Shown: positions 19,044 through 58,722, numbered from the stretch's first letter. The stretch: 64,000 nucleotides of DNA from an uncultured delta proteobacterium (GCA_963727485.1 CAVSGM010000001.1:274006-338005), one strand, 5' to 3'. Notes: generated from the letters alone by a model not told the origin. Program-made: numbers and translations.

Positions 19044-19071
19044 GGGGTCTCCGGTGGACGGCGCGGTGGGT

Positions 19072-26323: not shown

Positions 26324-26352
26324 CGTGCCGGGCGTGTGCCCGGCGGGTGCCT

Positions 26353-28004: not shown

Positions 28005-28031
28005 GGGGACGACGGGGGCCCGGGGGCGGCG

Positions 28032-29078: not shown

Positions 29079-29207
29079 GGACCTTCCCCCGGCCGGCATC
29101 CTACCATCCCCCCTGCCGCCGGGGGAGGGCACCCGGTCCCGCGCTTGCATTCCGTGGTATCGGTGTAAACTTCCGGGTCGGATTCCTGTGTCCGGGGGAA
29201 AAGAAGC

Positions 29208-29666
29208 ATGTCGCGCGTCCGATTCACCGTCGAGCTGGTCAAGCGTGGCCAGACCCTGTGCTTCGAGCTGCCAGAGGTGGCCAGCGCCAAGCTCGTGCAC
29301 CGGGGACGGGTGCCGATCAGCGGGAGCCTCAACAGCTTCCCGGTCCACACCTCGATCTTCCCCGACGACGACGGTGGCCACTTCATGACCGTGAGCCCGG
29401 ACATCCAGCGGATGGCCGGGGTGAAGGCCGGGGACCACGTGAAGGTCATCCTCGACCTCTCCAGCCAGCCGCGCACCGTCGAGGTGCCCGGCGACCTGGC
29501 CCGGGCCCTGGAGCGGGTCGCCGAGGCCCAGGAGGCCTTCGAGCGCCTCGCCTACTCCCACCAGCGGGAGTACGTGGAGTGGATCGAGGAGGCCAAGCGC
29601 CCGGAGACCCGGGCCCGGCGGATCGAGAAGACCGTCGAGCGCCTCCGCGAGACCCCGGCGCCCTGA
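29208..29666 (+). CDS. DUF1905 plus YdeI/OmpD-associated (OmdA) domain protein
   Basis: 152 aa. N-terminal RVPISGSLNSFPVHTSIFPDDDGGHFMTV pattern of DUF1905. The C-terminal AQEAFERLAYSHQREYVEWIEEAKRPETRARRIEKTVERL matches the YdeI/OmdA helix. SD GGGGGAAAAG upstream. Confidence 0.6.
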   Translation: MSRVRFTVELVKRGQTLCFELPEVASAKLVHRGRVPISGSLNSFPVHTSIFPDDDGGHFMTVSPDIQRMAGVKAGDHVKVILDLSSQPRTVEVPGDLARALERVAEAQEAFERLAYSHQREYVEWIEEAKRPETRARRIEKTVERLRETPAP

Positions 29667-29755
29667 TCCGGCCACCGCGCGAGGCGCGGGGTATTTGACC
29701 CGTCCCCGGTCGTGGCCTAGCTTCGCCAACGTTTCCCAGGCGAACCCAGGAGACG

Positions 29756-31879: not shown

Positions 31880-31886
31880 GACGGCC

Positions 31887-35249
<3,363 letters not shown>

Positions 35250-35250
35250 G

Positions 35251-37346
35251 ATGGACGCTCACGTGTCGGAGGCGCTCCAGGCCCTGGCCACCGCCTCCGG
35301 GGTGCAGCTCTCCTATACCGACCTCTCGGGGCAGCGGCAGGAGGCCTCCGACGAGGCGCTGCTGGCGGTGCTCGAGGTCCTGGGCGTGGGCCTGGCCCGC
35401 CCCGAGGACGCCGCCGAGCGCCTCGCCGCCGTCCACGCCGACCGGGCCCGGGCCCTGCTCCCGGCGGTGACCGTGGCCTGGGAGGGCCAGCCGGCGGCGC
35501 TCCACCTGCGCCTCCCGCCGGGGTCGGCGCGGCGGGTCGAGGGGGTGGTCGAGCTCGAGGACGGGACCCCCGTGGAGCTGGCCGCCGACCTCGAGCCGGT
35601 GGACGCGCCCGCCGCGGACGGGAGCCTCCGCCACCGCCTGCCGCTCCCGGCGGACCTGCCGGTGGGCTACCACCGGGTGCGCCTCTCGGCGGCCGGGCGC
35701 CTCGGCGAGGGGCACCTGCTGGTGGCGCCGTCGCAGGCCTTCTCCCCGGACGACGCCGGCCGGGACTCCGGGGTGGTCATGCCCCTCTACGCCCTCCGGG
35801 GCCGGGCCGCCGCGGGCCTCGCCGACCTCTCGGACCTCGAGGCGCTGGTGGACCTCGCTGCCCGGCACGGGGCGAAGGCGGTGGGCACCCTGCCGCTGCT
35901 CGCCTCGTTCCTCGACACGCCCTTCGAGCCCAGCCCCTACGCCCCGGCGAGCCGGCTCTTCTTCAACGAGCTCTACCTCGACCTCGAGGCCGTCCCCGAG
36001 CTCGCCGCCGCCAGCGAGGCCCGGGCGGTGCTGGGGTCCGGCGCCTGGCGCGCCCGGGCAAAGGCGGTAAGGGACGCCGACCTGGTGGACTACCGGGAGG
36101 CCGGGGCGCTGGTGCACGCGGTCCTCCAGCCCCTGGCCGACGCCGCCTTCGCCGGCACCGGTGCCCGGCGCGACGCCCTCGACGCCTTCATCCGCGCCCA
36201 CCCCGAGGCCGAGGACTACGCCCGGTTCCGCGGGGCGCTGGCCGCCCGGGGCGAGGCCTTCTGGACCTGGCCGGCGGCGATGCGCGACGGCGAGATCCAG
36301 ACCGACGCCGTGGACCAGGCCGCCTGGCGCCGGCACCTCTACGCCCAGTTCGCCCTCGCCGAGCAGCTCGAGGGCCTCGCGGGCCGGGCCCGGGACGCGG
36401 GGACCGAGCTCTACCTCGACCTCCCGGTGGGGGTGCACCCGGACGGCTACGACGTGTGGCGCGAGCGCGACGCCTTCGCCCTGGGCCTCTCCGCCGGCGC
36501 CCCCCCGGACCCGTTCTTCACCGGGGGCCAGGACTGGGGCTTCCCGCCGCTGCACCCGGCCCGGAGCCGGGAGACCGGCCACCACTACTTCGCCGCCTGC
36601 GTCCGCGCCCACATGCGCTACGCCGGCCGCCTGCGCATCGACCACGTGATGGGCCTCCACCGGCTCTTCTGGGTTCCCCGGGGCCTCGGGCCCCGGGAGG
36701 GCGTCTACGTGCGCTACCCCGCCGAGGAGCTGTGGGCGGTGGTGTGCATCGAGTCGCAGCGCCACCGGACCCGGGTGGTGGGCGAGAACCTGGGGACCGT
36801 CCCCGAGGCGGTGAACGAGGCCATGGGCCGCCACCGCATCGGCGGGATGTACGTGGCCCAGTTCGCCGTGGGGACCGACGCCGGCCAGGCGGTGCAGCCG
36901 CCGCCCGCCGGGAGCACCGCCAGCTTCGACACCCACGACACCCCGACCTTCGCCGGGTGGTGGCACGGCGACGACATCGGGCAGCGGGTGGACCTGGGCT
37001 TCCTCGACCCGGGCGCCGCCGAGCACGAGCGGGGGCTGCGCGGGGCCCAGGTCGACGCCCTCAAGCGGTGGCTCGCGGGGATGGGCCTCGCCGCCGACGA
37101 CGCCGAAGAGGCCGCCTGCCACCAGGCGCTGGTCACCTGGCTCGGGAGCACGGGCGCCGGCACCGTCCTGGTGAACCTCGAGGACGTGTGGGCCGAGCGC
37201 CACCCCCAGAACGTTCCGGGCACCCACCGCGAGGTGCCCAACTGGAGACACAAGGCGCGCCACCCCCTCGCCGAGATCGAGGAGATGGACGCGGTGAAGG
37301 ACCTCCTCGAGGCCCTGGCCCGCGCGCGCCACACCGGGAGCCCGTG

Positions 37347-37347
<1 letters not shown>
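35251..37347 (+). CDS. malQ: 4-alpha-glucanotransferase (amylomaltase) MalQ
   Basis: 698 aa. GH77 motifs (GVVMPLYALRG, DLPVGVHPDGYDVW, RIDHVMGLHRLFWVP). Confidence 0.85.
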
Positions 37348-39541
<2,194 letters not shown>

Positions 39542-39695
39542 TCCAAATTCCGCAGCGGCGGCGGACCGTTTCGTCCAACTAGGGTGGATCCTCCCCTTTG
39601 CCCCACCTTCCCCCATGTCTAACTGAGAGGGGTAACGGGGGAGGCGGAGATGGCGCTGGCCACGTCGGCCAGGCGTCTCCGGCTGGGAAGGATCC

Positions 39696-40805
39696 ATGGA
39701 TCTCCAGCGTGCGCCGCAAGGCCGGACACAACACCAGGGTTACGCAGAGCGCGTCCGACGGAAGGTGCGGCGCTACCGGCCCGACACCGATCGCGAGGCG
39801 CTCCTCGCCTTTCGCCGGGCCGCCTGGGGGGACGTGACCCAGGCGTCGGCGGCCTATCTCGACTGGCGCTACCCGGCGACCGACGGGGAGATCCCCCTGT
39901 GGGTCGTCAGCGAGGACGGCCGCATCGTGGCCACCCAGGGCGCGGTGCCGGTGCCCCTCACCGTCGAGGGCACCGTGTACCGCGGGGCCTGGCTCATCGA
40001 GCTCTTCGTGGACCCGAAGCACCGGTGGCGGGGCCTCGGGGCCGCGCTGACCCTGGTGGCCAGCGAGGGCTTCGAGGTGGTGATGGGCACCGAGCTCTCC
40101 GACGCCGCCTGGCAGACCTTCGACCGGGCCGGGTGGACCGATCTGGGGACCCTGCCGCTCTGGGCCCGGCCCCTCGACCTGGACGAGGTGCTGGCCACGC
40201 GCTTCCCGGGCCGGGTGCCGGAGGTGGCGCGGCGCGCGGCGGGGCCGGCGCTCCGGGCCGTCGACGCCACCGTCGACGGGCTCCTCGCCATCGCGGGCCT
40301 CGAGGTCCGGGAGGTCCGCCGCTTCGGGGACGAGGTGGACGCCCTGTGGCAGGAGGTGGGCGGGACCTCCCCGGTGATCGCCCGCCGGGACGCGGCGATC
40401 CTCAACCAGCGCTTCGCCGCCTATCCCGAGCCCGGGCGCTACCGGCTCCAGGCCTTCCACCGGGGCCGGCGCCTGGTGGGCTGGTCGGTGCTCCGCCTCG
40501 GCGAGCGCCACGGCCTGCCCTCGGGCGAGGTGGTCGACTTCCTCGCCGCGCCGGGCTTCACCCTCCCGGTGCTGGCCCGGAGCCTCCGGGTGCTCGCCCG
40601 GGCCGGGGCCCGGATGGCCTACGTGATTCATCTCGGACCCGATGCCGATGCCCTGCGGTGGCTCGGGTTCTCCCGGCGCGACACCGGCTGGCGCACCATG
40701 GTGAACGCGCCGGGGCTCCCGGCGGCGTCGCAGGCGCGCGTCTCCCGGCGGGACGGGTGGTACCTCACCGCGGGCGACAGCAATCTCGACCGGCCACGGG
40801 AGTGA
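39696..40805 (+). CDS. GNAT-family N-acetyltransferase domain protein (FemAB-like size)
   Basis: 369 aa. Central acetyl-CoA-binding motif VDPKHRWRGLGAAL (R/Q-x-x-G-x-G/A). First gene of the plus-strand EPS-modification operon. Confidence 0.55.
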   Translation: MDLQRAPQGRTQHQGYAERVRRKVRRYRPDTDREALLAFRRAAWGDVTQASAAYLDWRYPATDGEIPLWVVSEDGRIVATQGAVPVPLTVEGTVYRGAWLIELFVDPKHRWRGLGAALTLVASEGFEVVMGTELSDAAWQTFDRAGWTDLGTLPLWARPLDLDEVLATRFPGRVPEVARRAAGPALRAVDATVDGLLAIAGLEVREVRRFGDEVDALWQEVGGTSPVIARRDAAILNQRFAAYPEPGRYRLQAFHRGRRLVGWSVLRLGERHGLPSGEVVDFLAAPGFTLPVLARSLRVLARAGARMAYVIHLGPDADALRWLGFSRRDTGWRTMVNAPGLPAASQARVSRRDGWYLTAGDSNLDRPRE

Positions 40806-40826
40806 CCGGCGCAGTCAGGGGGGCAC

Positions 40827-42767
40827 ATGTGCGGTATTGCGGGGATCCTCGACACCCGGGGTGAGGGTGTCGACACCGGCGTCCTGGAGCGGATGATCAC
40901 CACCGTCCGCCACCGGGGGCCGGACGAGGTGGGCGTGCGCACCGACGCGTACCTCGGCCTCGCCCACGCGCGCCTGTCGATCATCGACATCGACGGCGGC
41001 CGCCAGCCCATGTCCATCGACGACGGGCGCCTGTGGATCGCCTTCAACGGCGAGATCTTCAACTTCGTGGAGCTGCGCGAAGAGCTCGAGGCCAGGGGCC
41101 ACCGCTTCCGCACCCGCTCGGACACCGAGGTGCTGCTGCGCCTCTACGCCGAGAAGGGCGACGACTTCGTCCACGACCTCAACGGCCAGTGGGCGCTGGC
41201 CATCTGGGACAGCCGGGCCCGCCGCCTGCTCCTCTCCCGGGACCGGGTGGGCATCGTGCCCCTCTACTGGACCCGGGTGGGCGCCCAGCTGGTCTTCGGC
41301 TCCGAGCTCAAGACCCTGCTGGCCCACCCGGACGTCCCCAGGCGCCTCGACCTCGAGGCCCTCGACGAGGTGCTCACCTTCTGGTCCCCGGTGGCCCCGC
41401 GGACCCTCCTCGAGGGCGTGAACGAGCTGCCGCCGGGGACCCAGATGGTCGTCGACGCCGCCGGCCACGTCCGCGAGCGGCGCTACTGGGCCTTCGCCCC
41501 GCGCCCCGACCCGGACCTCGGCGAGCCCGAGGAGATCGCCGCCGAGCTCCGGCGCCTCCTCCTCGACGCCACCCGCATCCGCCTGCGCTCCGACGTCCCG
41601 GTGGGCGCCTACCTCTCCGGCGGCCTCGATTCCTCGGTGATCTCCGCCCTCATCAACGAGGTCCGCGGGGAGCCGCCGAGGACCTTCTCGGTGACCTTCT
41701 CCGACCACGAGTTCGACGAGGCGCCGTTCCAGGACGACATGGTCCGCCACCTGGGCAGCGACCACCGCCAGGTGGCCATCGGCGCCGGCGACATCGCCCG
41801 GGTCTTCCCCGACGTCATCTGGCACGGGGAGAAGCCCATCCTCCGCACCGCCCCGGCGCCGCTCTTCCTGCTCTCGGAGCTGGTCCACCGCGAGGGCTAC
41901 AAGGTGGTGCTCACCGGCGAGGGCTCCGACGAGTACCTGGGCGGCTACGACATCTTCAAGGAGGCCAAGGTCCGGGCCTTCTGGGCGGCGATGCCCGCCT
42001 CGCAGCTTCGCCCCCAGCTCCTCCGGCGCCTCTACCCCTACCTGCCGAGGATGCAGGCCCAGAGCCCGGCGTTCCTCATGGCCTTCTTCCAGGTGCGCCC
42101 CGGGGCCGCCGCCGACCCCTTCTTCTCCCACCAGCCCAGGTGGCAGCTCACCAGCCGCATCAAGCCTTTGCTCTCCGATGCGGTGCGCGCGGATCTCGGC
42201 GATCGCGACGCGGTGGCCGAGCTCTCGACCCGGGTGCCCGCGGACTTCGGGAGCTGGGACCCCTTCTCCCGGGCCCAGTGGCTCGAGGCCACCCTGCTCA
42301 TGCCCGGCTACATCCTCTCGTCCCAGGGCGACCGGATGGCCATGGGCCACGCGGTGGAGGGGCGCTTCCCGTTCCTCGATCACCGGGTCATCGAGCTCGC
42401 CGCCCGGATGCCGGTGAAGGTGAAGATGCGCGGCCTCGACGAGAAGCACGTCCTCAAGGCCGCGGCCAAGGGGCTCATCCCCGAGTCGGTGCGCCGGCGC
42501 AAGAAGCAGCCCTACCGCGCCCCCGACGCGGCGAGCTTCTTCGGCGACGGCGCCCCCGAGTGGGTCGACGCGATGCTCTCCGAGACGGCGCTGCGCGAGG
42601 CCGGTCTCTTCAATCCCCGGGCGGTGGCGCACCTCACGGCCAAGGCCCGCGCCGGTCGCGCCGCCGGCGCCCGGGACAACATGGCGCTGGTGGGAGTCCT
42701 CTCCGCCCAGCTCTTCCACGATCAGTTCATCTCCCACAACCGGAGGCTCACCGATGCAGGCCATTGA
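40827..42767 (+). CDS. asnB: Asparagine synthase (glutamine-hydrolysing) family amidotransferase
   Basis: 646 aa. N-terminal nucleophile MCGIAGIL (class II GATase), PP-loop SGGLDSS in the synthetase domain. Confidence 0.85.
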   Translation: MCGIAGILDTRGEGVDTGVLERMITTVRHRGPDEVGVRTDAYLGLAHARLSIIDIDGGRQPMSIDDGRLWIAFNGEIFNFVELREELEARGHRFRTRSDTEVLLRLYAEKGDDFVHDLNGQWALAIWDSRARRLLLSRDRVGIVPLYWTRVGAQLVFGSELKTLLAHPDVPRRLDLEALDEVLTFWSPVAPRTLLEGVNELPPGTQMVVDAAGHVRERRYWAFAPRPDPDLGEPEEIAAELRRLLLDATRIRLRSDVPVGAYLSGGLDSSVISALINEVRGEPPRTFSVTFSDHEFDEAPFQDDMVRHLGSDHRQVAIGAGDIARVFPDVIWHGEKPILRTAPAPLFLLSELVHREGYKVVLTGEGSDEYLGGYDIFKEAKVRAFWAAMPASQLRPQLLRRLYPYLPRMQAQSPAFLMAFFQVRPGAAADPFFSHQPRWQLTSRIKPLLSDAVRADLGDRDAVAELSTRVPADFGSWDPFSRAQWLEATLLMPGYILSSQGDRMAMGHAVEGRFPFLDHRVIELAARMPVKVKMRGLDEKHVLKAAAKGLIPESVRRRKKQPYRAPDAASFFGDGAPEWVDAMLSETALREAGLFNPRAVAHLTAKARAGRAAGARDNMALVGVLSAQLFHDQFISHNRRLTDAGH

Positions 42768-43017
42768 GACCGAGATCAGGCAGTTCGTGGTGGACAACTT
42801 CCTCTTCGGCCGGGACGAGCCGAAGCTCCGTCCCGACGACTCCTTCCTCGACGCCGGCGTCATCGACTCCACCGGCGTCCTGGAGCTGGTGAGCTTCCTC
42901 GAGCGTCACTTCGGGATCCAGGTGGACGACGCCGACCTCGTCCCCGAGAACCTCGACTCCATCGCCGGCATCGTGCGCTACGTGTCGGGCAAGCGCCCCG
43001 CGGTGGCCCAGGCCTGA
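42754..43017 (+). CDS. Acyl carrier protein
   Basis: 87 aa. Phosphopantetheine attachment motif LDAGVIDSTGVLELV (DSx). Start overlaps the asnB 3' end by 14 nt. Confidence 0.75.
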   Translation: MQAIETEIRQFVVDNFLFGRDEPKLRPDDSFLDAGVIDSTGVLELVSFLERHFGIQVDDADLVPENLDSIAGIVRYVSGKRPAVAQA

Positions 43018-43025
43018 AGGAGGGC

Positions 43026-44582
43026 GTGATGCTGCTCGAAGGCTTCCTGGAGCAAAGCGCGAGCGCCCGGCCCGACCACCTGGCGCTGGTCGCCGGCGAG
43101 GCGCGGCTGACCTATGCCGAGGTGGAGGCGAGGGCCAACGCGCTCGCCCACGGCCTCCAGGACCTGGGGGTCCGCCGGGGCGACCGGGTGCTCATCCACC
43201 TGGAGAACGGCGTCGACGCGGTACTGGCGATCTTCGCCACCCTCAAGGCCGGGGCGACCTTCGTGATGGTCAACCCCACGGCCAAGAGCCACCGCCTCGC
43301 CTACCTCCTCGAGGACACCCGGGCCACCGCGCTGTTCACCGACCCCAGAAGGCTCACCGCCACCTCCGGGGCCTGGGCGCTCTCACCCCACCTCCTCGCG
43401 GTGGTGGTCGCCGGCGACCCCGAGGACCCGGTGGGCGCCGACGGCAAGCGCCTCGCGGGCCTCGACGGGCTCCTCGCCGCCTTCCGCGACCGGGCGGACG
43501 CCCCGCCCCCCAAGCGGCACATCGACCAGGACCTCGCCGCCCTCATCTACACCTCGGGCTCCACCGGGAGCCCCAAGGGCGTGATGTCCACCCACCGGAA
43601 CATGCGCTTCGCCGCCCGGTCGATCCTCACCTACCTGGAGAACGTGCCCGAGGACGTCCTCCTCCTGGTGCTGCCGCTGTCCTTCGACTACGGCCTCTAC
43701 CAGGTGCTCATGGCGTTCGCCGTGGGGGCCACGGTGGTGGTGGAGCGCGGCTTCACCTACCCCCACGCGGTGTTGAACCGGGCGGTGGCCGAAGGGGTCA
43801 CGGGCCTGCCGGTGGTGCCCACGCTCCTGGCGATGCTCCTCGAGCTCGACCTCGAGCGCTACGACCTCTCGAAGCTGCGCTACCTCACCAACACCGGCGC
43901 GGCGCTCCCGGTGGAGCACATCCGCCAGGTGCGCCAGCGCCTGCCGGGGATGCGCGTCTACTCCATGTACGGCCTCACCGAGTGCAAGCGCGTGGCCTAC
44001 CTCCCGCCCGAGGAGATCGACGCCCGCCCCGGCTCGGTGGGCCGGGCCATCCCCGGCACCGAGGTCTACCTGGTCGACGACGAGGGCCACCGCCTCGGCC
44101 CCGGGCAGGTGGGCCAGCTGGTGGTCCGCGGCAGCCACGTGATGCGCGGCTACTGGGAGCGCCCGGAGGACACCGACCGGGTCTACCGCCCGGGCCCCAT
44201 CCCCGGCGAGAAGGTGCTCCACACCGGCGACCTCTTCCGCCAGGACGACGAGGGCTTCCTCTACTTCGTCGGCCGGCGCGACGACATCATCAAGTCCCGG
44301 GGCGAGAAGGTCAGCCCCCGGGAGGTGGAGGACGTGCTCCACGCCATGCCCGGCATCGCCGAGGCGGCGGTGGTCGGCGTCCCCAATCCCTTCCTCGGCC
44401 AGGCGGTGAAGGCGGTGGTCCGGGCGGTCCCCGGCGCCACCCTCACCGAGCCCGAGGTCCGTGCTCACTGCCGCCGCCACCTCGAGGACTTCATGGTCCC
44501 CTCGTCGGTGGAGGTGGTGGACGAGCTTCCCCGCACGCCCAACGGAAAGATCGACAAGGCGCGTCTCACCCGCGCGCCTTGA
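43026..44582 (+). CDS. AMP-dependent synthetase/ligase (acyl-CoA or acyl-ACP ligase)
   Basis: 518 aa. AMP-binding signature IYTSGSTGSPKGV, plus TGD and conserved C-terminal GKIDK motifs. Confidence 0.85.
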   Translation: MMLLEGFLEQSASARPDHLALVAGEARLTYAEVEARANALAHGLQDLGVRRGDRVLIHLENGVDAVLAIFATLKAGATFVMVNPTAKSHRLAYLLEDTRATALFTDPRRLTATSGAWALSPHLLAVVVAGDPEDPVGADGKRLAGLDGLLAAFRDRADAPPPKRHIDQDLAALIYTSGSTGSPKGVMSTHRNMRFAARSILTYLENVPEDVLLLVLPLSFDYGLYQVLMAFAVGATVVVERGFTYPHAVLNRAVAEGVTGLPVVPTLLAMLLELDLERYDLSKLRYLTNTGAALPVEHIRQVRQRLPGMRVYSMYGLTECKRVAYLPPEEIDARPGSVGRAIPGTEVYLVDDEGHRLGPGQVGQLVVRGSHVMRGYWERPEDTDRVYRPGPIPGEKVLHTGDLFRQDDEGFLYFVGRRDDIIKSRGEKVSPREVEDVLHAMPGIAEAAVVGVPNPFLGQAVKAVVRAVPGATLTEPEVRAHCRRHLEDFMVPSSVEVVDELPRTPNGKIDKARLTRAP

Positions 44583-44594
44583 GGAGGTGACCCG

Positions 44595-45647
44595 ATGACC
44601 ACCCAGCGCTTCTCCCCCGACGTCCTCGAGCTCGACACCGCCAAGGAGACCGCGCGGATCGTCGACGCCATTCGCGACCAGGTCTTCGCCACCCTCCACA
44701 AGAAGGGCGTGGTGGTGGGGCTCTCAGGCGGCATCGACTCCTCGGTGACCGCGGCGCTGTGCGCCCGGGCGCTGGGCCCCGAGCGGGTGGTGGGCCTGCT
44801 CATGCCCGAGGGCGAGAGCGCCGGCGACACCCTGCGCCTCTCGCACCTGGCCGCCGCGCGCATCGACGTCGCCACCGTCCTCGAGGACATCACCATGATC
44901 CTCGAGGCCACCGGCTGCTATCGCCGCCGCGACACCGCCATCCGCAAGGTGATGCCCGAGTACGGCCCCCTCTACCGGGCGACCCTCGCCCACTCCAACG
45001 TCCTCGACCACGACGGGATGCTCACCTACAGCCTCCTGGTCGCCGACCCCGAGGGCAACCGCAGCCACCGCCGGCTCACCCCCGAGGCGTTCCTGGAGAT
45101 CGTCGCCGCCACCAGCTTCAAGCAGCGGGTGCGCAAGATGATGGAGTACCACCACGCCGACCGCCTCGGCTTCGCCGTCGCCGGGACCCCCAACCGCCTG
45201 GAGTACGACCAGGGCTTCTTCGTGAGGAACGGCGACGGGGCCGCCGACCTCAAGCCCATCGCCCACCTCTACAAGACCCAGGTCTACGCCCTGGCCGAGT
45301 ACCTGGCGGTGCCCGAGGAGATCCGCGCCCGGCCGCCGACCACCGACACCTACCCCCTGGAGGCGTCCCAGGACGAGTTCTTCTTCCCCCTGCCCTACAA
45401 GGAGATGGATCTCACCATGTGGGGCCTCGACCACTCGGTGCCCGCCGGCGAGGTGGCCGAGGTCATCGGCAAGACCGAGAAGCAGGTGGCGAGGGTCTAC
45501 CGGCACATCCAGCAGCGCCGGGTGGCGACCCGGAGCCTGCACCTGGCGCCCCTGACCGTGGAGCCGGTGCTCGCCGAGCTCCCGGCGAAGGACGGGCCCC
45601 GGCGCGCCGGCCGGCCGGCGGGCAACGGCGCACATCTGAGGACCTAG
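44595..45647 (+). CDS. NAD synthetase-like N-type ATP pyrophosphatase (PP-loop) family protein
   Basis: 350 aa. PP-loop VVGLSGGIDSSVTAAL and NadE-like core. Embedded in the ACP/ligase/amidotransferase operon. Confidence 0.7.
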   Translation: MTTQRFSPDVLELDTAKETARIVDAIRDQVFATLHKKGVVVGLSGGIDSSVTAALCARALGPERVVGLLMPEGESAGDTLRLSHLAAARIDVATVLEDITMILEATGCYRRRDTAIRKVMPEYGPLYRATLAHSNVLDHDGMLTYSLLVADPEGNRSHRRLTPEAFLEIVAATSFKQRVRKMMEYHHADRLGFAVAGTPNRLEYDQGFFVRNGDGAADLKPIAHLYKTQVYALAEYLAVPEEIRARPPTTDTYPLEASQDEFFFPLPYKEMDLTMWGLDHSVPAGEVAEVIGKTEKQVARVYRHIQQRRVATRSLHLAPLTVEPVLAELPAKDGPRRAGRPAGNGAHLRT

Positions 45648-45659
45648 GCGGGCCAGACC

Positions 45660-46884
45660 TCACTTGGCCAGGTAGGGGCGCACCAGCCCCCCGGGGTGGC
45701 GGAGGATCCGCGCGGCGAAGGCCAGCGACGGCAGGGGATCCGCCGGGTCGTGGACGATGTCCACGTGGGGCCGGCGCCGGGCCTCGAGGTAGGCGCCGAG
45801 GCGCGCCCGGCGCCCGGGCCCCCGGGCCACGCCCACCCACTGGCCCACGTGCCAGGGGATGCCGTTGACGAAGACCTCGGGCCCCCCGGCGGCCTCGGCG
45901 GTCGCCGCGACCTGGCCCAGGGTGGCGCGGTACCAGATGAGGGGCAGGTCCACCTGCCGGGCCACGTCGAAGCGGATCTGGCCGTGGGCCCGGGGGTTCA
46001 GGTCGATGGCGAGGGTGGTGCCGTCCCGGAGGCGGACCAGCTCCAGCTCGAAGAGCCCCCGGCCGAGGATGCGCCGGACCACGGTCACCGCGGTGTCCAG
46101 GACCTCGGCGCCGGCGAACGGCTCGAAGACCGTGCCCACGCCCACCCGCGGCGGCCACTGCCCGCGCTTGACGTGACCGGTGCGGGCGAGGAGGACGCCG
46201 CCATCGCCGAGCATCCCGCTCACCGCCACCAGGTCCTCGACCCCGGCGCCGATCCACGCCTGGATCACCGGGAGCCCCAGGTCGTTGCGGCGCAGGAGCC
46301 GGCGCCAGGCGTCCGGGACCGGGTAGGGGCGGAAGGCGGCGCGAAGCTCGCGGGCGTCGTTGACCACCACCCCCCGGGCGAGGGGCACCGCCACGTGGCT
46401 TTGGGGCTTGAGCACCACCGGGTAGGGGAGCTCACCGGCGACCTCGAGGGCCGCCTCCACCGACGGCGGCGCCAGGGTGAAGGGCGTGGCGACGCCGGCG
46501 GCGCGGCAGGCCTCGTCGAAGCGGTCCTTGAAGAGGGTCGCCTCCACCGCCGCCCGCCCCGGGAGCACCGCCCGCACCGCCGGCGGCAGCCGGTCCCGGA
46601 CCAGGGACAGGTAGAAGGCGATGAGGTCCGAGGTGGGCGCGACCCGGAGGAGGCGGCCGGCGGCGACCTCGGCCTCGAGCCAGGGGAGGAAGCGCCCCGG
46701 GTCCGCCGGGTCGGGGCTGCGCCGGTAGCCGGTGTGCCACCGGGAGAGCCGGGCGGCGGGCAGGGCGCTGGGGCCGCTGACGATCACCGGGACCCCGGCC
46801 CGGCCCAGGGAGCGGACGAAGGCGAGGGCGCCGGGGCTGTCGGCGTCGAAGACGGTGACCGGGGGCAGGGCGCTGGGGCGCATC
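45660..46884 (-). CDS. ATP-grasp domain protein (carboxylate-amine ligase-like)
   Basis: About 408 aa from ATG 46884. ATP-grasp central and C-terminal domains (PYPVVLKPQSHVAV...; LELELVRLRDGTTLAIDLNPR). The long N-terminal extension of the track ORF is an out-of-gene Gly/Arg-rich artifact. Confidence 0.65.
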
Positions 46885-47650
46885 ACCGGGCCCCCTGCAG
46901 GCGGCGCCGGGCGCGGAGCTGACGCCACACGATGCCCAGGAACTTCGGGTCCCGGACCAGGTACCGGCGCCAGAGGCGGCGGGGCTCGTGGACCAGCCGG
47001 TAGAACCACTCCAGCCCCAGGCGCGAGACCCACCGCGGCGCCCGGCGCACCACCCCGGCGACGAAGTCCAGGGAGGCGCCGATCCCGAGCGCCACCGCCG
47101 GGCCCAGGCGCGCGGCGTGGTGATGGATCCACAGCTCCTGCTTGGGGCAGCCCAGCGCCACCAGCACCAGGTCCGGGTGGGCGGCCCGGATCCGGTCGGC
47201 GGCGGCGGCGGCCTCGGCGTCGTCGGGGGCGGCGATGCGCGGGGCGTCGACCCCGGCGATGCGCAGGGCCGGCAGCCGCGCCCGGAGCACCGCCGCCGCC
47301 TTCTCCCCCACCCCCGGGGCGCCGCCGAGGAGGTAGACCGACCACCCCCGGGAGGCGGCCAGCGCCAGGAGCGGCTCCACCAAATCCGAGCCCGAGACCT
47401 TCGCGGGCAGGGGCCGGCCCAAGAGCCGGCTGGCCCAGAGGATGGGCATCCCGTCGGCGAGCGAGAGGGCGGCCTCGGCGTAGGCGGCCTTCAGCGCCGG
47501 CTCGACCTCGGCGAGGACCACGTGGTCGACGTTGGGCGTGAGCACGTAGCCGCCGTGGCGCGCCTCCACCAGGGTGCCGATGGCGTCGAGGGCCCCGGCG
47601 AAGGTCACCTCGTCCACCGTGACCGCGCCCACCTGCATCATCGCTCGCAT
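46883..47650 (-). CDS. WecB/TagA/CpsF-family glycosyltransferase (N-acetylmannosaminyltransferase-like)
   Basis: 255 aa. Family motifs VTPNVDHVVLA, GCPKQELW, LGIGASLDF. Stop overlaps the ATP-grasp start. Confidence 0.8.
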   Translation of the reverse strand: MRAMMQVGAVTVDEVTFAGALDAIGTLVEARHGGYVLTPNVDHVVLAEVEPALKAAYAEAALSLADGMPILWASRLLGRPLPAKVSGSDLVEPLLALAASRGWSVYLLGGAPGVGEKAAAVLRARLPALRIAGVDAPRIAAPDDAEAAAAADRIRAAHPDLVLVALGCPKQELWIHHHAARLGPAVALGIGASLDFVAGVVRRAPRWVSRLGLEWFYRLVHEPRRLWRRYLVRDPKFLGIVWRQLRARRRLQGAR

Positions 47651-47678: not shown

Positions 47679-49396
47679 CTACGGCGCCAGGACGTAGGTG
47701 GTGACGCTCATCGCCGGCAGGGTGTCCCGGAAGCCGTTGGCCACCACGGGCTTCAGGGTCCCCGCGGGGACGGGCGCCGGCTTCGCCCGCGTGAGGCGGA
47801 ACACCCGGGCGCCTTCGAGGCACGAGGCCCCGGAGACGCGGAGGGCCACCGTCAGCGGCGCGCTCGACTTGTTGAGGGCCACCACCGTGACCCGTCCCGG
47901 GTGGGCGGTGTCGGTGGCCGCGTAGACGGTGACCCGGGCGAGCTTTGGGGTGGTCGCCTTCACCGAGGTGTCCCCGAAGGCCAGCCCGTGGCCGTCGAGG
48001 TCCCGGTACATGGCGAAGGCCGGGTAGATGAAGGCGTGGGGCCGGTCGGCGGTCCACACCGCGGCGGCGAAGAGCCCCTCGCGGCCGAAGATCCCCAGGG
48101 CGTCGGCCTGGGCCAGGGCCCCGGAGATGTCGTCGCCGCCGCCGAAGAAGTACTCGCTGATGGCGAGCTTCGTCCCCGGGTCGTGGCGGGCGATGAGCGC
48201 GAAGAGCCGGGGGATGAGGCGGATGGGGCCGCCGGTGCCCGCGCGGCTCACCCAGGAGCCCTCGTCGTAGCCCGGATCCCAGAGCGAGCGGGTGGACTGG
48301 AGCCGGGCGGCGACCACCGCGGGGCTGGCGTCGGGGCTGGAGGTGCGCTTTCCGCCCGCGCGGACCTCCGGGTACCAGTGGACGTCGAGGACGTCGAGGA
48401 GCCGGTGGCCGCCCTCGGCGCTCGCCCGGCGCATGGCGTCGAGGTAGGCGGCGAGGAAGAACCGGCCGTGGCCGTCGGGGGCGCGCTGGAGGTTCGCCAT
48501 CCCCATCCACCCGTAGCTCGCCGGGCCGAAGGTGAGCGCCCGCCGGTCCACCGCCTTCACCGCCTGGGCCAGGGCCACCGAGCGGGAGATGAGCTCCTCG
48601 TAGCCGGTGGGGTCGGGGTGGATCCGGGCGTGGGTCGAGGGCCAGAGCGCCGGCTCGTTGTCGAGGCTGTAGAAGATCCGCGAGGGGCCCGTGTCGGCGT
48701 CGGGGAAGCGCTTCTCCAGCCAGGCCACCAGCTCGTCCTGGTAGACCACCCCGTCCTTCAGGTCCGGGGGGTAGACGAAGGGCGCGTTCTTCTTCGGGGC
48801 GTTCCGGACGAAGCGACGGTCCCGGTAGTCGGGGGTCTTCGCCACGTCGCCGTCCTTGCCCTTGTCCGCGGCGACCCGCTCGAGGAGCGGGAGGGTGACC
48901 AGGATGCTCGCCCGGTGGGCCCGGGCCTCGTCGACCCGCTCGCGCACGGCGGCCCCGGGGACGTCGCCGCCGCCGAGGAGCCCGTCGTTCTGGTGGTGCC
49001 AGTCGCTGCCGGCGTTGGAGGCGTTGTTCTCCCAGTCGTAGGTGCTCCAGCGGTTCCCCCCGGCGCGGACGAAGGTCAGGCCCTCCACCGCGCGGGTCCA
49101 CTTCCAGTCGTGGGAGAGGTTGGAGCCGTAGACGTAGGGCGAGATGGGGTGGACCGCCTCGTTCACCGAGACGTCCAGGGTCATCGCCACCCCGGGCACC
49201 CGGCCGGCCACCACGTTCGCCTGGCCCGGGCGGCAGGTGCCCGAGCCCGCCTCCGCCTGGGCGAGGGACTGGGCGGCGGCGGGGCGGGCGCCGACGGTGC
49301 AGCCGCCGACGAGGAGCGCCAGGGTGAGGACGCCCAGGGCCCGGGCCCGATCCCGGGCCTTGCCGCAGTCGCCCGGCGGAAATAACTGGCGACCAT
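47679..49396 (-). CDS. Glycoside hydrolase family 44-like lipoprotein; start codon uncertain
   Basis: About 570 aa. Lipoprotein signal ...ALGVLTLALLVGGC. The GH44-type core (NRWSTYDWENNASNAGSDW, ISEYFFGGGDD) and a C-terminal beta-sandwich both match the partial paralog at 63789..64000. There is no in-frame ATG/GTG/TTG near the signal peptide. The ATG at 49396 is one frame off and would need a 1-nt indel in the GGGCCCGGGCCC run. It also shares its AT with the divergent deacetylase start (CATG). Confidence 0.6.
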
Positions 49397-50363
49397 GACC
49401 CCTCTGTCGGCCAGCCTCCGCGCGGCCACCCGGGACGTGGTCCTGGGCGCCGGCCCCCGGCTGCCCCGGAGCGCGGTGGCCGGGCTCCTCCGGCGCGCCA
49501 CCCGTGGCCTCGAGGTGGCTCTCTGCCTCCACCGGGTGGGCCCGGTCCGGGCCACCGATCCCCTGCCGTGGATGACCATCCCGGAGGACACCCTCGACGA
49601 CTTCCTCGAGCTCGCCCGGGGTGTGAGGCTCACCGTCACCTTCGACGACGGCTACGCCGACGCGGTGGCCTGGCTCCGGGCGCGGGCGCCGCGCCACCCG
49701 GAGGTGGACTTCGTCCTCTTCGTCTGCCCCGAGAAGCTGGAGACCCGGGCGGGCTTTCGCTGGGATCTCTTCGAGCGCCGCCGCGCCGAGGGCGCCGATC
49801 CCGGGCCCCTGCGGCCCTTCGTCGACGCGCCCTTCGATCCCGGGTCGGAGAACCATCGGCCCGAGCTCGTGGGCCTCGCCGACCGGCCGGAGCTGGCGCT
49901 GGCCACCGTCGAGGCCTGCCGGGAGATGGCGGCCCTGCGAAACGTCCGCCTCGGCGACCACGGCGACACCCACCTGCGCCTCACCGGCCTCGCCCCCGAG
50001 GTCGCCCGCGCCGAGCTCGAGGCCTCGGCGGCCCACTTCGCGGCGCGCTTCGGGCCTGCCGAGGACTTCGCCTTCCCCTTCGGGGTGCCGGGGAGGGACT
50101 ACGACGGGACCCACGTGGCCACCCTGCGGAGGCTGGGCTACCGCCGGCTGTGGAGCACGGCGCCCCGGGCGTTCCGGCCCGAGGCCCGATCGGGCGAGTC
50201 AGGTGCTGCCGAGGTTTCCGGTGATGGGGAACTGGCATGCGAAGGCCCTCGCGGTGTGGGTGGCGGCGTCGGCCATGAGGCGGGGGCCCCTAGAGGACCC
50301 CGTGCTCGACGAGATAGCGGCGGGTGCGCTGGGCCAGTGACCAGGCGGGCGGGCTGGCCCTGA
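49395..50363 (+). CDS. Polysaccharide deacetylase family protein (NodB homology domain); 3' end uncertain
   Basis: 322 aa. TFDDGY motif and downstream His motifs. The last about 60 aa are Gly-rich and overlap the convergent GNAT gene by about 225 nt, suggesting a 3' frame error. Confidence 0.65.
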   Translation: MTPLSASLRAATRDVVLGAGPRLPRSAVAGLLRRATRGLEVALCLHRVGPVRATDPLPWMTIPEDTLDDFLELARGVRLTVTFDDGYADAVAWLRARAPRHPEVDFVLFVCPEKLETRAGFRWDLFERRRAEGADPGPLRPFVDAPFDPGSENHRPELVGLADRPELALATVEACREMAALRNVRLGDHGDTHLRLTGLAPEVARAELEASAAHFAARFGPAEDFAFPFGVPGRDYDGTHVATLRRLGYRRLWSTAPRAFRPEARSGESGAAEVSGDGELACEGPRGVGGGVGHEAGAPRGPRARRDSGGCAGPVTRRAGWP

Positions 50364-51283
50364 CCGCGGCGGCGAGGCCGTGGCGAACCGGAGACCAGAG
50401 GCGGCTCGCCAGGGGCAGCGTGGCCCACCGGCCCCACCACCCGGACGTCGGTGGCGTAGTGCCACTTGTAGTCCTCGTCGCCGTAGAGGAACTCGAAGCT
50501 CCGATCGCCGGCGTGGTGGCTCGCCTCGAGGAGGTGGTGGAGGAGCAGGCGGCCCGGGGCGTAGCGGGAGAGCGCCGGGTCGTAGACGGGCATCCAGTAG
50601 TGGAACCGGCCCTGCCAGGTGGCCCCGAGGTGGATCGCCGCCGGCCGGGTGCCCGCCCGGAGGACGGCGACCTGGAGCAGGCCCCGGCGCCACAGGGCGC
50701 GGAAGAGCTCGGCGTTGCGCCGGGGCGCGAGGAAGTCCGGCGCCCCGGTGCGGCGGTACTGGTCGCGCTTCCAGGTGAGGGCCAGCTCCAGGAGCTCCGG
50801 GGCCGGGTGGTGGAGGTAGAGGGCGACCGGGCCCACCTCCTCCTCGAGGCGCCGGAGGCGACGGCGGGCTTCGGAGAAGGTGTTGCGCTGCCGCGCCTTC
50901 ACCGAGGCCTCGAAGTCGGCCCACCGGGGGAAGCGCGCCCAGTCCACGAAGGGCGCGGCGCCGAAGCCGGGCTCGGGGAGGCGGCCGAGGAACACCTCCG
51001 CCGGCACCACCTCCACCACCGCGTTGCCCAGCAGGCTCAAGGGGCGCTCGGCGCCGGTGGCCGGGCCCAGGGGCGCGTGGAGATCCACGAAGGCCACGTC
51101 GGCCAGCAGCCGCCCGCCGGCCTCCACCGCCCGGTAGCGGCGGCCGTCCACCGCGAGCTCCACCAGGCGCGCCTCGGCCCCGGGGGCCCAGGCCTCGGCG
51201 AGGGCCTCGAGGAACGGCGGGGCGTCGAAGAAGGTCTCCCGGCTCGCGTCGGCGGCGAGGACTTCAGGCACGGAGGGCATCAC
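50138..51283 (-). CDS. FemAB/CelD-like GNAT-fold acyltransferase (EPS-locus type); 3' end uncertain
   Basis: 381 aa as written. BioF2/CelD-like core ending ...FEFLYGDEDYKWHYATD. After this, a -1 shifted frame gives a more protein-like tail (...ATLPLASRLWSPVRHGLAAAVRASPPAWSLAQRTRRYLVEHGVL, stop near 50290), while the in-frame tail is Gly/Pro/Arg junk. Confidence 0.6.
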   Translation of the reverse strand: MMPSVPEVLAADASRETFFDAPPFLEALAEAWAPGAEARLVELAVDGRRYRAVEAGGRLLADVAFVDLHAPLGPATGAERPLSLLGNAVVEVVPAEVFLGRLPEPGFGAAPFVDWARFPRWADFEASVKARQRNTFSEARRRLRRLEEEVGPVALYLHHPAPELLELALTWKRDQYRRTGAPDFLAPRRNAELFRALWRRGLLQVAVLRAGTRPAAIHLGATWQGRFHYWMPVYDPALSRYAPGRLLLHHLLEASHHAGDRSFEFLYGDEDYKWHYATDVRVVGPVGHAAPGEPPLVSGSPRPRRRGQGQPARLVTGPAHPPLSRRARGPLGAPASWPTPPPTPRGPSHASSPSPETSAAPDSPDRASGRNARGAVLHSRR

Positions 51284-55160: not shown

Positions 55161-56677
55161 GCCGTACCTCCCTGGAGGGCCATGGCCCCCGTCCGGATCC
55201 GCGCGGTGGCCCGGGCCCCGAGGGCCCCCGACGCCACCGCCAGGTTCGCCGCCGCCCCGCCGAGGGCGCTCATCACCAGCAGCGGCATCCAGTCCTGGAG
55301 CCCGATGTCGCCGAAGGCCTGGACCTCGAAGGCGATCACCGCCACCACCGCCGCCATCGCCACCACCCGCCGCCCGGGGGTGCGGGCGAAGCGGTGGGCC
55401 CTGACCCCGATGAACAGGAGGATTGGCAGCACCATCCAGATCGCCGAGAACCCCACCAGCCCCCCGGCGGTGAGCAGCCAGAGGACGCTGTTGTGGGGGA
55501 GGAAGCGGTACTGCTTGAAGAACTGCGAGAGGTCGTAGGCGGGGACGAGCTCCTCGTAGGGGTGGCCGAACCCCCGGCCGAAGAGGGGGTGGCCGTGGAG
55601 GGTGTAGACGAGGTTGAGGTCCTCGACCTCCCGCGACTTGCTCGACGAGTCCTGCTGCTCGCCCACCGAGTGGAGGGCCTCCACCGGGGCGAAGATCTTG
55701 GAGTGGCTCCCCAGCCCCATCACCACGTAGGCGAGGAGCAGGGGGCTCGCGGCCACCCCCACCTTGAGGAAGATCCCACGCAGGGGCCGGCGCAGGAGGA
55801 GGACGAAGGCGAGGAGGGCGTAGATCAGGGCCACGTAGGCCAGGCGCCGGTCGTTGAGGATCATCACCACGCCGATGAACGGCGCCACGGTGACGAAGGC
55901 GAGCGTGCGCAGGAGGTCCCGGTGCTCCATCAGCCCGTGGAGGAGGAGCACCAGCACCAGCACGTAGAGGACCGAGTCGGAGTGGGTGGTGATGTAGTGG
56001 GCCTGGAAGCCCACCGGGCGGCAGTAGCGCAGCCAGTACCAGAGCCCGAGGAGCCCCCGGATCACCGTCACCGCCACCAGGCCCACCACCAGGACCCGGC
56101 GGACGCCGTCGGTGGAGAAGGCGTGGAGCGCGAGGACGACGAGGACCGGGAGCCAGAGGAGCTGGCGCATCTGCCACAGGGACTGCTGCACGTCGCCGCC
56201 CCGGGCGAGCCCGAAGACCTCCAGGCCCAGCACCGCCAGGAAGCACACCGCCAGGGCCAGGATCAGGGGCCGGAGCGCCGGGTCCAGGGGGGGCACCTCG
56301 CCCTTGAGCCGCCGGATCACGAGCGCCACCAGCATCAGCAACAGGCCCACCTCGAGGAGCGAGAGGTGGACGGCGCCGAAGCCGAGGGAGGTGTTGAGGT
56401 TGTCGTAGAGGAGCTTGCCCGGGGCGTAGAGGGGCGAGCGCCACCGGCCCTGCATCGGGTTCGACGAGGGGTCCGGGAGGAGCACCGACCCCAGGACCAC
56501 GGCGGTCATCAGCCAGGAGAAGGGCGCCCGGGCGAGGAGCCACACCGCGAGCACCACCAGCGCCGGCGCCAGGGCGAACACCGGCCGGGTGGCCGCGCCG
56601 AGGAAGGCGCTGGCCACCATCACCACCGGGAGCACCAGCCACAGGGTGCGGCGGCGCAGCTTTCGGGTCGGGGTCAC
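55157..56677 (-). CDS. O-antigen ligase/polymerase-like (Wzy_C domain) polytopic membrane protein
   Basis: About 506 aa. At least 10 TM helices. Periplasmic loop motif FLPHNSVLWLLTAGGLVG matches the Wzy_C signature H-N-x-x-L-x(4)-x-G-x-x-G. Probable GTG start overlapping the upstream gene's stop (GTGA). Confidence 0.7.
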   Translation of the reverse strand: MTPTRKLRRRTLWLVLPVVMVASAFLGAATRPVFALAPALVVLAVWLLARAPFSWLMTAVVLGSVLLPDPSSNPMQGRWRSPLYAPGKLLYDNLNTSLGFGAVHLSLLEVGLLLMLVALVIRRLKGEVPPLDPALRPLILALAVCFLAVLGLEVFGLARGGDVQQSLWQMRQLLWLPVLVVLALHAFSTDGVRRVLVVGLVAVTVIRGLLGLWYWLRYCRPVGFQAHYITTHSDSVLYVLVLVLLLHGLMEHRDLLRTLAFVTVAPFIGVVMILNDRRLAYVALIYALLAFVLLLRRPLRGIFLKVGVAASPLLLAYVVMGLGSHSKIFAPVEALHSVGEQQDSSSKSREVEDLNLVYTLHGHPLFGRGFGHPYEELVPAYDLSQFFKQYRFLPHNSVLWLLTAGGLVGFSAIWMVLPILLFIGVRAHRFARTPGRRVVAMAAVVAVIAFEVQAFGDIGLQDWMPLLVMSALGGAAANLAVASGALGARATARIRTGAMALQGGTA

Positions 56678-58554: not shown

Positions 58555-58722
58555 TCAGAGGCGCGGGTAGAGGTAGCGGAGGGCCAGGAGGTAGAGGGCG
58601 GCGACGCCGGCCATGGTCACCACCACCTGGAGCAGGGCGCGGCGGGGGCGCTCGGTCCGGGCGAGGAGCACCGGCACCGCGATGGTCGCCAGGAGGATCG
58701 AGGTGAGGACCAGGGACTTCAT
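58555..58722 (-). CDS. Small (55 aa) two-TM membrane protein, translationally coupled to the upstream OM-protein gene
   Basis: Hand-translated: MKSLVLTSILLATIAVPVLLARTERPRRALLQVVVTMAGVAALYLLALRYLYPRL. Its ATG overlaps the TGA of the 58719..59982 gene (ATGA). G/C-biased third positions. Below the ORF-track size cutoff. Confidence 0.4.
   Translation of the reverse strand: MKSLVLTSILLATIAVPVLLARTERPRRALLQVVVTMAGVAALYLLALRYLYPRL

Follow-up and report, generated by a model that had tools for sequence, protein, structure and literature searches.

In the DltA/DltC system an adenylation enzyme whose A4 motif is of the FD type charges a small carrier protein of its own, and the cargo passes to a cell-surface glycopolymer. 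In the VinN/VinL/VinO route (vicenistatin) and the BtrI/J/K/H route (4-amino-2-hydroxybutyrate (AHBA) side chain of butirosin) an acidic amino acid is tethered to and tailored on a stand-alone acyl carrier protein (ACP) and then transferred, the acceptor in the butirosin route being the amine of an amino sugar; NodB/NodF/NodA is a further working analogue. AsnB-like amidotransferases acting on carboxylates other than that of aspartate include TsnB9, OxyD (malonyl starter) and WbpS, AsnH and LtsA (envelope polymers), and we know of none among them that has both a NadE-like enzyme and a dedicated ACP as partners. An amidotransferase, an acyl-CoA ligase and an ACP associated with the XrtA/PEP-CTERM system were reportedly described by Haft and colleagues in 2006. 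Here we describe a four-gene cassette, encoding an AsnB-type amidotransferase, an ACP, an adenylating ligase and a NadE-like enzyme, found in a 64,000-nucleotide stretch of DNA (the window) from an uncultured delta proteobacterium (GCA_963727485.1 CAVSGM010000001.1:274006-338005).

The same four genes form the operon asnB-smb20651-smb20650-nadE on the Sinorhizobium meliloti megaplasmid pSymB. SMb20651 was called 'another acyl carrier protein' by Ramos-Vega et al. 2009 (Microbiology 155:257), going by the citing passage in PMC5686131. It is reported to be a genuine phosphopantetheinylated carrier whose acylation is promoted by the ligase; smb20650 is cotranscribed with smb20651, and co-expression of smb20650 in E. 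coli yields acylated SMb20651 (PMC7232532). SMb20650 was unable to replace FadD in either species, and it neither supported growth on oleate nor removed free fatty acids (PMC7232532). Since it cannot replace FadD, SMb20650 does not serve as a fatty acyl-CoA synthetase of the general kind. What the operon does was said in 2017 to need 'further investigation' (PMC5686131), and our literature searches for the gene combination found nothing beyond the Sinorhizobium papers and no later functional assignment.

The four-gene cassette and its conservation

Analysis of the window and of related loci revealed that the unit is a four-gene core cassette, which is widely conserved. In the window the four genes are adjacent on the + strand in the order AsnB-ACP-ligase-NadE (40827-45647). 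Because the GC content of the window is about 74%, shadow open reading frames (ORFs) fill the raw ORF lists and most long ORFs are spurious; genes were therefore picked by GC at codon positions and then checked with Pfam and NCBIfam profiles. All the genes that an earlier note on this DNA had flagged were confirmed where the note had placed them. The stop of the AsnB gene overlaps the start of the ACP gene by 14 bp, and the + strand genes are tightly packed, with gaps of 21, 8 and 12 bp. Scans for promoters and terminators in 39400-47000 yielded nothing informative.

The AsnB-type glutamine-dependent amidotransferase (646 aa; 40827-42767, +) matched Asn_synthase with 321 bits and GATase_7 with 155 bits, and its top NCBIfam match was the general asparagine synthase model TIGR01536 (491, cutoff 267). 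The N-terminal MCGI with the Cys nucleophile of the glutaminase is intact and the PP-loop reads SGGLDSS. The best PDB matches were the hydroxyamidotransferase TsnB9 (7ylz) and AsnB (1ct9); the intact Cys and PP-loop fit amidation of a non-aspartate carboxylate. The dedicated small acyl or aminoacyl carrier protein (87 aa; 42754-43017, +) matched PP-binding with 34.9 bits and has the conserved serine in GVIDSTG. It passed no NCBIfam ACP model; the best was that of the ornithine-lipid ACP (54.7, cutoff 130), and the DltC model was weak on it (24.7, cutoff 68). Two candidate identities were tried and rejected: the ornithine-lipid OlsHI ACP (PMC12493201), given that low score and the absence of a GH3-like OlsH gene, and the N-acetylglutaminylglutamine amide (NAGGN; asnO-ngg) system, given a TIGR03104 score of 372 against 570 and the absence of an Ngg-like GNAT/ATP-grasp fusion.

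The adenylating ligase (517-518 aa; 43026-44582, +), a probable loader of the carrier protein, matched AMP-binding with 328 bits; the database protein begins at the ATG at 43029 and has 517 aa. Its best-scoring specific model was TIGR03098 (499, cutoff 592), and TIGR01733 gave 292 against 317. Alignment to nonribosomal peptide synthetase adenylation domains revealed that its A3 motif is retained, as are Asp in A4 and Lys in A10: SFDYG aligns with the FDxS A4 motif of the LgrA adenylation domains, and the lysine of NGKID is conserved. The motif LPLSFDYGLYQ is invariant among ligases of the orthologous type. The best single-domain PDB relatives were VinN (3wvn) and then malonyl-CoA synthetase. 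VinN loads 3-methylaspartate onto a carrier protein, and the substrates of both enzymes are small and dicarboxylic. A match to linear gramicidin synthetase (357 bits) was set aside, as it was summed over two A-domains and the best single domain gave 141 bits.

The NadE-like PP-loop ATP pyrophosphatase (350 aa; 44595-45647, +) matched NAD_synthase (153 bits), TIGR00552 (143, cutoff 63.65) and the long (~330 aa) NF002048/PRK00876 subfamily, for which the window protein scored 466 and that of S. medicae 532 against a cutoff of 313. Its PP-loop reads SGGIDSS, and its C-terminal half, which contains GDGAAD, aligns to the NH3-dependent NadE structures 2e18 and 3p52. Comparison with Pyrococcus horikoshii NadE (2e18) revealed about 98 residues in place of about 43 between the aligned blocks, and this region is strongly conserved across the cassette family. 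Public genomes annotate the gene as 'NAD(+) synthase'; we infer that the enzyme is not the housekeeping NAD synthetase. Profiles and motifs agree with the earlier description in placing a dedicated ACP and an adenylating ligase between two enzymes of ATP-dependent amidation.

Ligase homologues with 58-65% identity were abundant in Planctomycetota, Acidobacteriota and other phyla. The four distant contigs reached through them (L001-L004 in our numbering of cassette loci) carry AsnB, small ACP, ligase and NAD_synthase-like genes in the order seen in the window, all four proteins being 49-63% identical. A GTDB scan seeded with the NadE-like protein and using one genome per species found loci in at least 590 species genomes from more than 10 phyla; the best 80 loci, from which the phyla were listed, include Planctomycetota, Acidobacteriota, Nitrospirota, Myxococcota, Actinomycetota, Pseudomonadota, Gemmatimonadota and Chloroflexota. 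Gene content was counted in the 54 loci with at least 5 kb of flank on both sides. AsnB was present in 50/54, the ACP in 48/54, both in 47/54 and all four genes in 43/54, and the order of the window was the commonest arrangement. In about 90% of loci the NadE-like gene is linked to AsnB and ACP, and it is on this gene that the cassette is anchored. The ligase was of the orthologous type in 26 loci, was replaced by a different adenylating enzyme in 23 and was absent from five. Dozens of unrelated genomes have the same four core genes side by side, far more than chance would allow, and the module first noticed in the window is confirmed as one whose four core genes recur together across phyla.

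Variants of the cassette were also observed. A Planctomycetales locus (L002, 10001-13241) has two tandem cassette ligases, 88% identical to each other, the second with the A4 Asp changed (SFGYGL). In three Mesorhizobium loci (L056, L062 and L085; 7254-9992) a 912-aa adenylation and thioesterase protein is encoded directly upstream of the NadE-like gene, and the genes run NadE-AsnB-ligase-ACP, with a methyltransferase gene in the opposite orientation after them. Two further loci contain AsnB-ACP-NadE with no ligase within 10 kb, so that the ACP there would have to be loaded in some other way; the genes that follow encode GT4, a homologue of the 369-aa tandem-GNAT protein described below (GNAT369) and GT4 in one (L037, 7727-14572), and an Antibiotic_NAT-family acyltransferase in the other (L014, 7769-11881).

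On sequence comparison the core cassette is orthologous to the S. meliloti pSymB operon, a point that the earlier note had missed: the four genes, their order and the fit to NF002048 are the same. In a search of plasmid proteins the NadE-like gene turned up on 116 replicons, most of them pSymB-type megaplasmids of Sinorhizobium, and the Sinorhizobium and Mesorhizobium cassettes are carried on megaplasmids and plasmids. On S. medicae pMl3 the order of the window recurs, and the annotations read asnB, acyl carrier protein, AMP-binding protein and nadE. Identities to Sinorhizobium in tblastn were 52-54% for AsnB, 51% for the ACP, 53-54% for the ligase and 56% for NadE, essentially over full length. 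The window differs from the S. meliloti operon in the preceding tandem-GNAT gene and in abutting a Myxococcus-type exopolysaccharide (EPS) operon and a GlgE operon.

Polysaccharide neighbourhoods and candidate transferases

All ORFs of 85 cassette loci were clustered for counting neighbours. The commonest non-core neighbours were Wzz/GNVR, Bac_transf phosphoglycosyl transferase and GDSL/SGNH proteins (14 each), followed by hexapeptide acyltransferases (12), GT4 glycosyltransferases (10) and methyltransferases (10). Polysaccharide deacetylases (9), BY-kinases (9), Wza (8), Acetyltransf_6 proteins (7), deacetylases with DUF3473 (7) and WecG (7) were rarer. Polysaccharide markers occur in at least 31 of the 60 loci of 15 kb or more, a lower bound because L004 was missed by this count. 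The association of the module with a polysaccharide locus, as claimed for the window alone in the earlier note, is therefore seen in its relatives too, with Wzz/GNVR, phosphoglycosyl transferase, GT4, BY-kinase, Wza, WecG, deacetylases and Acetyltransf_6 as neighbours. In three Myxococcota loci (L020, L059 from Anaeromyxobacter and L073 from Archangium) the cassette stands beside homologues of EpsA, EpsD and EpsU.

In the window five + strand genes (the tandem-GNAT gene and the core four) sit downstream of, and co-oriented with, the alpha-glucan operon of the GlgE pathway, which encodes GlgE, a TreS-maltokinase fusion (TreS-Mak), MalQ and GlgB (29756-39541, +). The cassette and the minus-strand EPS operon converge stop-to-stop with a 12-bp gap. 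The alpha-glucan operon-GNAT-cassette arrangement is repeated in a related organism (L094, GNAT 80% identical), and adjacency to GlgB is confined to the close relatives L089 and L094. Given the polysaccharide neighbours, the Eps-adjacent Myxococcota loci and the restriction of GlgB to close relatives, the functional neighbour of the cassette would be the EPS locus and not the alpha-glucan operon.

The EPS operon reads, in order of transcription, EpsZ, Wzx, EpsY, EpsV, Wzy, EpsU, EpsC, EpsD, Acetyltransf_6, GH44 EpsB and EpsA; its last genes encode this EpsA-like WecG glycosyltransferase and an ATP-grasp protein. Myxococcus xanthus Eps models were the top matches (EpsZ, Wzx_EPS, EpsY, EpsV, Wzy_EPS, EpsU, EpsC, EpsD, EpsB and EpsA), and among these only EpsC exceeds its equivalog cutoff (158.7, cutoff 150). 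Judged by these profiles the operon is a relative of the M. xanthus-type Wzx/Wzy Eps locus and not a strict equivalog of it. The EpsA-like WecG/TagA/CpsF glycosyltransferase (46883-47650, -) matched Glyco_tran_WecG with 219 bits and passed TIGR00696 (160, cutoff 69), its score for the EpsA model NF041872 being 284 against 500.

Acyltransferases of several kinds are encoded beside the cassette: GNAT369 homologues in eight other distinct loci, Acetyltransf_6 proteins in seven, GDSL/SGNH proteins in 14 and a protein of the aminoglycoside-N-acetyltransferase family (Antibiotic_NAT) in L014. Such varied N-acyltransferases fit a donor-making core with interchangeable transferases. In the window the tandem-GNAT acyltransferase GNAT369 (369 aa; 39696-40805, +), an accessory partner of the cassette, gave 31 bits with Acetyltransf_9, and Pfam Acetyltransf_9 and Acetyltransf_1 cover its N-terminal half only. 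Its AlphaFold model (pLDDT 86.6, pTM 0.85) has two GNAT-like halves, the architecture of N-acyltransferases such as N-myristoyltransferase, and N-myristoyltransferases were the best Foldseek matches in the PDB (E=3e-14, TM ~0.55). GNAT369 homologues lie 3-125 bp from the cassette in four distinct loci, L003 and L007 being one contig and counted once, and 1.3-3.8 kb from it in four more. On the predicted structure GNAT369 is a candidate transferase for the cassette product. An alternative candidate acyl or aminoacyl transferase is the FemAB-like Acetyltransf_6 protein of the EPS operon (50138-51283, -; PF13480, 113 bits), which is not TIGR03019 since it had no NCBIfam match.

A NodB-type polysaccharide deacetylase-like gene (49395-50363, +; Polysacc_deac_1 27.1, cutoff 23.1) lies inside the EPS operon, with a + strand coding-frame signal at 49501-50101. 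A homologue stands beside WecG in Archangium L073 (41% identity, E=2e-41), and the gene was called in L089 too. The 811-aa GH44 ORF (47679-50114, -) is over-extended, the deacetylase-like gene covering its first ~250 codons; the overlap indicates that the GH44 start is probably at or before 49214.

Three of the earlier assignments changed on analysis. The GNAT protein had been called FemAB-like, but the 369-aa protein does not belong to Pfam Acetyltransf_6, and the genuine Acetyltransf_6 gene is the one at 50138-51283. The region 46883-47650, which had been counted in the module, is the WecG-family gene of the EPS operon. The ATP-grasp ligase (407 aa; 45660-46883, -) is a true ATP-grasp enzyme by profile and predicted structure, as had been proposed, but it is encoded on the minus strand as the final gene of the EPS operon and not in the + strand module. 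A direct Pfam search with this protein gave no match; a profile built from 26 homologues hit the carbamoyl-phosphate synthetase ATP-grasp domain (E=1.8e-24), and its model (pLDDT 92.6) resembles PurK, PurT, biotin carboxylase and L-amino-acid ligases. As a cassette member it was rejected, with zero homologues in the 85 cassette loci; homologues were found outside these loci, in other contexts. In L093 (8609-11242) a 47%-identical homologue directly follows a gene for a 460-aa Acetyltransf_6 protein in an unrelated context, which hints that ATP-grasp and FemAB-like proteins may form a pair apart from the cassette.

Proposed pathway and alternatives

The identities of the genes, their catalytic motifs and orthology, the degree to which the cassette is conserved and the polysaccharide genes around it are observations. 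From these we propose, with a probability of roughly 0.55, that the cassette assembles a modified acyl or aminoacyl group while this is attached to a carrier protein of its own, and passes the group to a cell-surface polysaccharide. The substrate, the order of the steps and the acceptor may be pictured as follows, with much less confidence in any individual step than in the general model. A small carboxylic acid, most likely one that also bears an amino group or another carboxylate (Asp/Glu-like or malonate-like), would be adenylated by the ligase, which would then join the activated acid as a thioester to the phosphopantetheine arm of the ACP. AsnB, using glutamine and ATP, would then convert the free carboxylate of the tethered group to a carboxamide; action on an ACP-tethered group is suggested by the near-constant adjacency and the translational coupling of AsnB and ACP. 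The NadE-like enzyme would use ATP for another activation of the ammonia type, its substrate being something other than nicotinic acid adenine dinucleotide (NaAD); this could be a second carboxylate, possibly that of a uronic acid. Finally, a variable N-acyltransferase, here the tandem-GNAT and/or the FemAB-like Acetyltransf_6 protein, would transfer the product to an amine that the NodB-type deacetylase of the Myxococcus-type EPS pathway had uncovered on a sugar. The polymer may then be N-acylated or amidated, as the earlier note envisaged.

The scheme resembles the Dlt system in its FD-type ligase, dedicated carrier and glycopolymer target, and differs from it in that two amidating enzymes are added; no DltB (MBOAT) or DltD homologue was found in scans of the window. 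It resembles the Vin and Btr routes in that no solved single-domain relative of the ligase matches better than VinN. Tailoring in those routes is by decarboxylation and in an antibiotic context, whereas in the cassette it would be by amidation (AsnB and NadE-like) and in a polysaccharide context.

Several observations weigh against the proposed pathway. None of the marker clusters was found in 29 of the 60 long loci; L002 and L003 are not obviously polysaccharide loci; in Sinorhizobium the operon is a solitary one close to minCDE, about 9 kb from a polysaccharide cluster; and in the window itself the cassette is co-oriented with the glycogen/alpha-glucan genes and not with the EPS operon. The sequences in themselves reveal no substrate. 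With a different type of ligase in 23 loci and none in five, the loaded group may vary. Ramos-Vega and co-workers reportedly found, in 2009, that the ACP carried C12:0/C18:0 acyl groups in E. coli, which would indicate fatty acids rather than amino acids. The NadE-like protein passes the NCBI NAD(+) synthase model and retains the NadE catalytic motifs, so it may yet have true NAD synthetase activity.

The earlier note read the gene combination as a signature of exosortase loci. An accessory module of an exosortase (XrtA)/PEP-CTERM EPS system, with an EpsI-like AsnB and an exosortase-A-associated ligase/ACP pair, would share with the cassette the logic of a dedicated ACP, a ligase and an AsnB-like enzyme in EPS loci with deacetylase and FemAB-like genes, and the nearest specific hidden Markov models for AsnB and ligase are those of this set. 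Both fall short over 40827-45647, the region for which this comparison had been proposed: TIGR03098 was the top match of the ligase (498.9 bits, cutoff 592.35), and TIGR03108 the second of AsnB after TIGR01536 (416.9 bits, cutoff 816.9). Orthologues from an acidobacterial locus and S. medicae are below the cutoffs as well (TIGR03108 443-461, TIGR03098 457-506), and L001 contains a second, non-cassette AsnB that is nearer TIGR03108 (657) than its cassette AsnB (461). Links to such systems do occur among the relatives: in Nitrospira L072 an XrtA-system deacetylase beside the cassette passes TIGR03006 (374, cutoff 276), its gene cluster, deacetylases with DUF3473, is found in seven loci, L072, which was the one tested, and six others, and sigma-54 activators lie upstream in L002 and L003. 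In the window Pfam and/or NCBIfam scans of gene-sized ORFs found no exosortase family, the Acetyltransf_6 and deacetylase genes matched neither TIGR03019 nor TIGR03006, and there was no pyridoxal phosphate (PLP) decarboxylase of the exosortase-type sets. A motif scan of all ORFs in the window and the 85 related loci gave three spurious matches and no PEP-CTERM tail, the scan being heuristic and such proteins often being encoded away from the EPS locus; profile and motif scans are thus in accord with the earlier observation that the window has neither an exosortase gene nor a PEP-CTERM tail. The partners in the XrtA set are a PLP decarboxylase and hydrolases, whereas the partner here, and the most constant one in the cassette, is the NadE-like gene, which is no component of the exosortase signature as described. 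Loci without such markers, in Sinorhizobium and in actinobacteria, carry the cassette too, and the operon that it adjoins in the window is of the Myxococcus Wzx/Wzy Eps type. Of the exosortase signature there remain the near matches to TIGR03098 and TIGR03108 and the L072 neighbour; on the testable features the window does not belong to an XrtA system, and we regard this reading as unlikely. The cassette may fairly be described, on its sequence relationships, as a sister of the exosortase-associated ligase/AsnB set that is sometimes found in XrtA-type loci.

A lipid pathway, in which the ligase is a long-chain acyl-ACP synthetase and the amidotransferases make an amide-containing lipid or lipid anchor, also appears improbable. 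It would agree with the acylation of SMb20651 on co-expression of SMb20650 (PMC7232532), with the many fatty-acid-CoA ligase models that match the ligase at 335-385 bits, with the ornithine-lipid ACP as the best, sub-threshold ACP model, with the likeness of the GNAT model to N-myristoyltransferase, and with genes for FabH, a ketoreductase, FabA and a thioesterase beside the cassette in L004 and for an acyl-CoA dehydrogenase in L001. SMb20650 behaves otherwise on oleate and free fatty acids, the ligase has the FD A4 motif of amino-acid adenylation domains, and no lipid-synthesis gene is consistently linked to the cassette, unlike polysaccharide genes. Separate action of the enzymes on sugars, AsnB making a uronamide in the manner of WbpS, the NadE-like enzyme a second amide or amidino group and the ligase/ACP pair an unrelated N-acyl group, seems quite improbable. 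The AsnB-like amidotransferases WbpS, AsnH and LtsA amidate uronic acids or peptidoglycan carboxylates, the WecG-family transferase of the EPS operon belongs to a family that handles sugars of the N-acetylmannosamine and N-acetylmannosaminuronic acid type, and NaAD and nucleoside diphosphate (NDP)-uronic acids may be likened as nucleoside-diphosphate-linked carboxylates. Yet the four genes travel together without adjacent sugar genes, as in Sinorhizobium, and the usual adjacency and translational overlap of AsnB and ACP suggest a shared intermediate. That an asparagine synthetase, an NAD synthetase, a fatty acyl-CoA ligase and a spare ACP, all housekeeping, are adjacent by chance is very unlikely: TIGR01536 and NF002048 are passed and RefSeq/GenBank use the names asnB and nadE, but 43-50 of the 54 loci, from more than 10 phyla, have the set together, with genes that are translationally coupled; in Sinorhizobium and Mesorhizobium it lies on megaplasmids and plasmids; and it includes in SMb20650 a ligase that is not a FadD.

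Remaining genes of the window and the meaning of the cassette

The window contains other genes and several apparently split ones. The EPS operon includes a stand-alone response-regulator receiver protein (58141-58542, -) and, beside it, a 183-aa ORF (58719-59270) with no family match. The gene for the phosphoglycosyl transferase EpsZ appears split (62123-63491, -), positions 1-350 of the model lying in one frame and 374-459 in the ORF 62123-62386, as is the polysaccharide copolymerase EpsV (56674-58050, -), with 20-159 in one frame and 171-479 in 56674-57612; both splits could be frameshifts, either assembly errors or pseudogenes. The GlgB ORF (38036-39541, +) begins at about position 138 of 619 of its profile, the N-terminal part being missing, and a coding signal in another frame at 37501-37951, just upstream, suggests another frameshift in 37500-39541. 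The first quarter of the window is occupied by a complete division and cell wall (dcw) cluster unconnected with the cassette (1-16217; PBP, MurE, MurF, MraY, MurD, FtsW, MurG, MurC, MurB, Ddl, FtsQ, FtsA and FtsZ). Within it (region 13065-15387, +) FtsA is apparently split (13065-13277 and 13363-14013) and the Tubulin domain of FtsZ is only partly matched. FtsA/FtsZ and the other split genes together indicate indel errors typical of long-read metagenome assembly. A further assembly, L089, comes from this organism or a near relative and is far more fragmented. Two stretches (16249-21231, - and 26124-29852, -) contain ORFs of 167, 212, 498, 719 and 606 aa without a Pfam or NCBIfam match, the sole match of the ORF 26124-28004 being a weak one to the ComEC C-terminus.

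While the S. meliloti operon has been known since 2009, this study adds the cassette that crosses phyla and its usual home in a polysaccharide locus, one with deacetylases and N-acyltransferases, and the almost constant tie of the 'NAD synthase' to AsnB and ACP. The results give an orphan ACP system a concrete hypothesis that can be put to the test, and they mark the NadE-like gene as one that is probably over-annotated in a systematic way. We suggest tentatively, at somewhat below even odds, that AsnB-ACP-(ligase)-NadE-like is an undescribed and widespread polysaccharide-decorating pathway (at least 590 species, more than 10 phyla) and that the hundreds of genes called 'NAD(+) synthase' on the strength of NF002048 encode not NAD synthetases but amidating enzymes of a carrier pathway (or of NDP-uronic acids). 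If true, this would add a new amide-bearing substituent and its enzymology to the chemistry of bacterial exopolysaccharides, and would bear on the properties of the biofilm matrix of soil and water bacteria.

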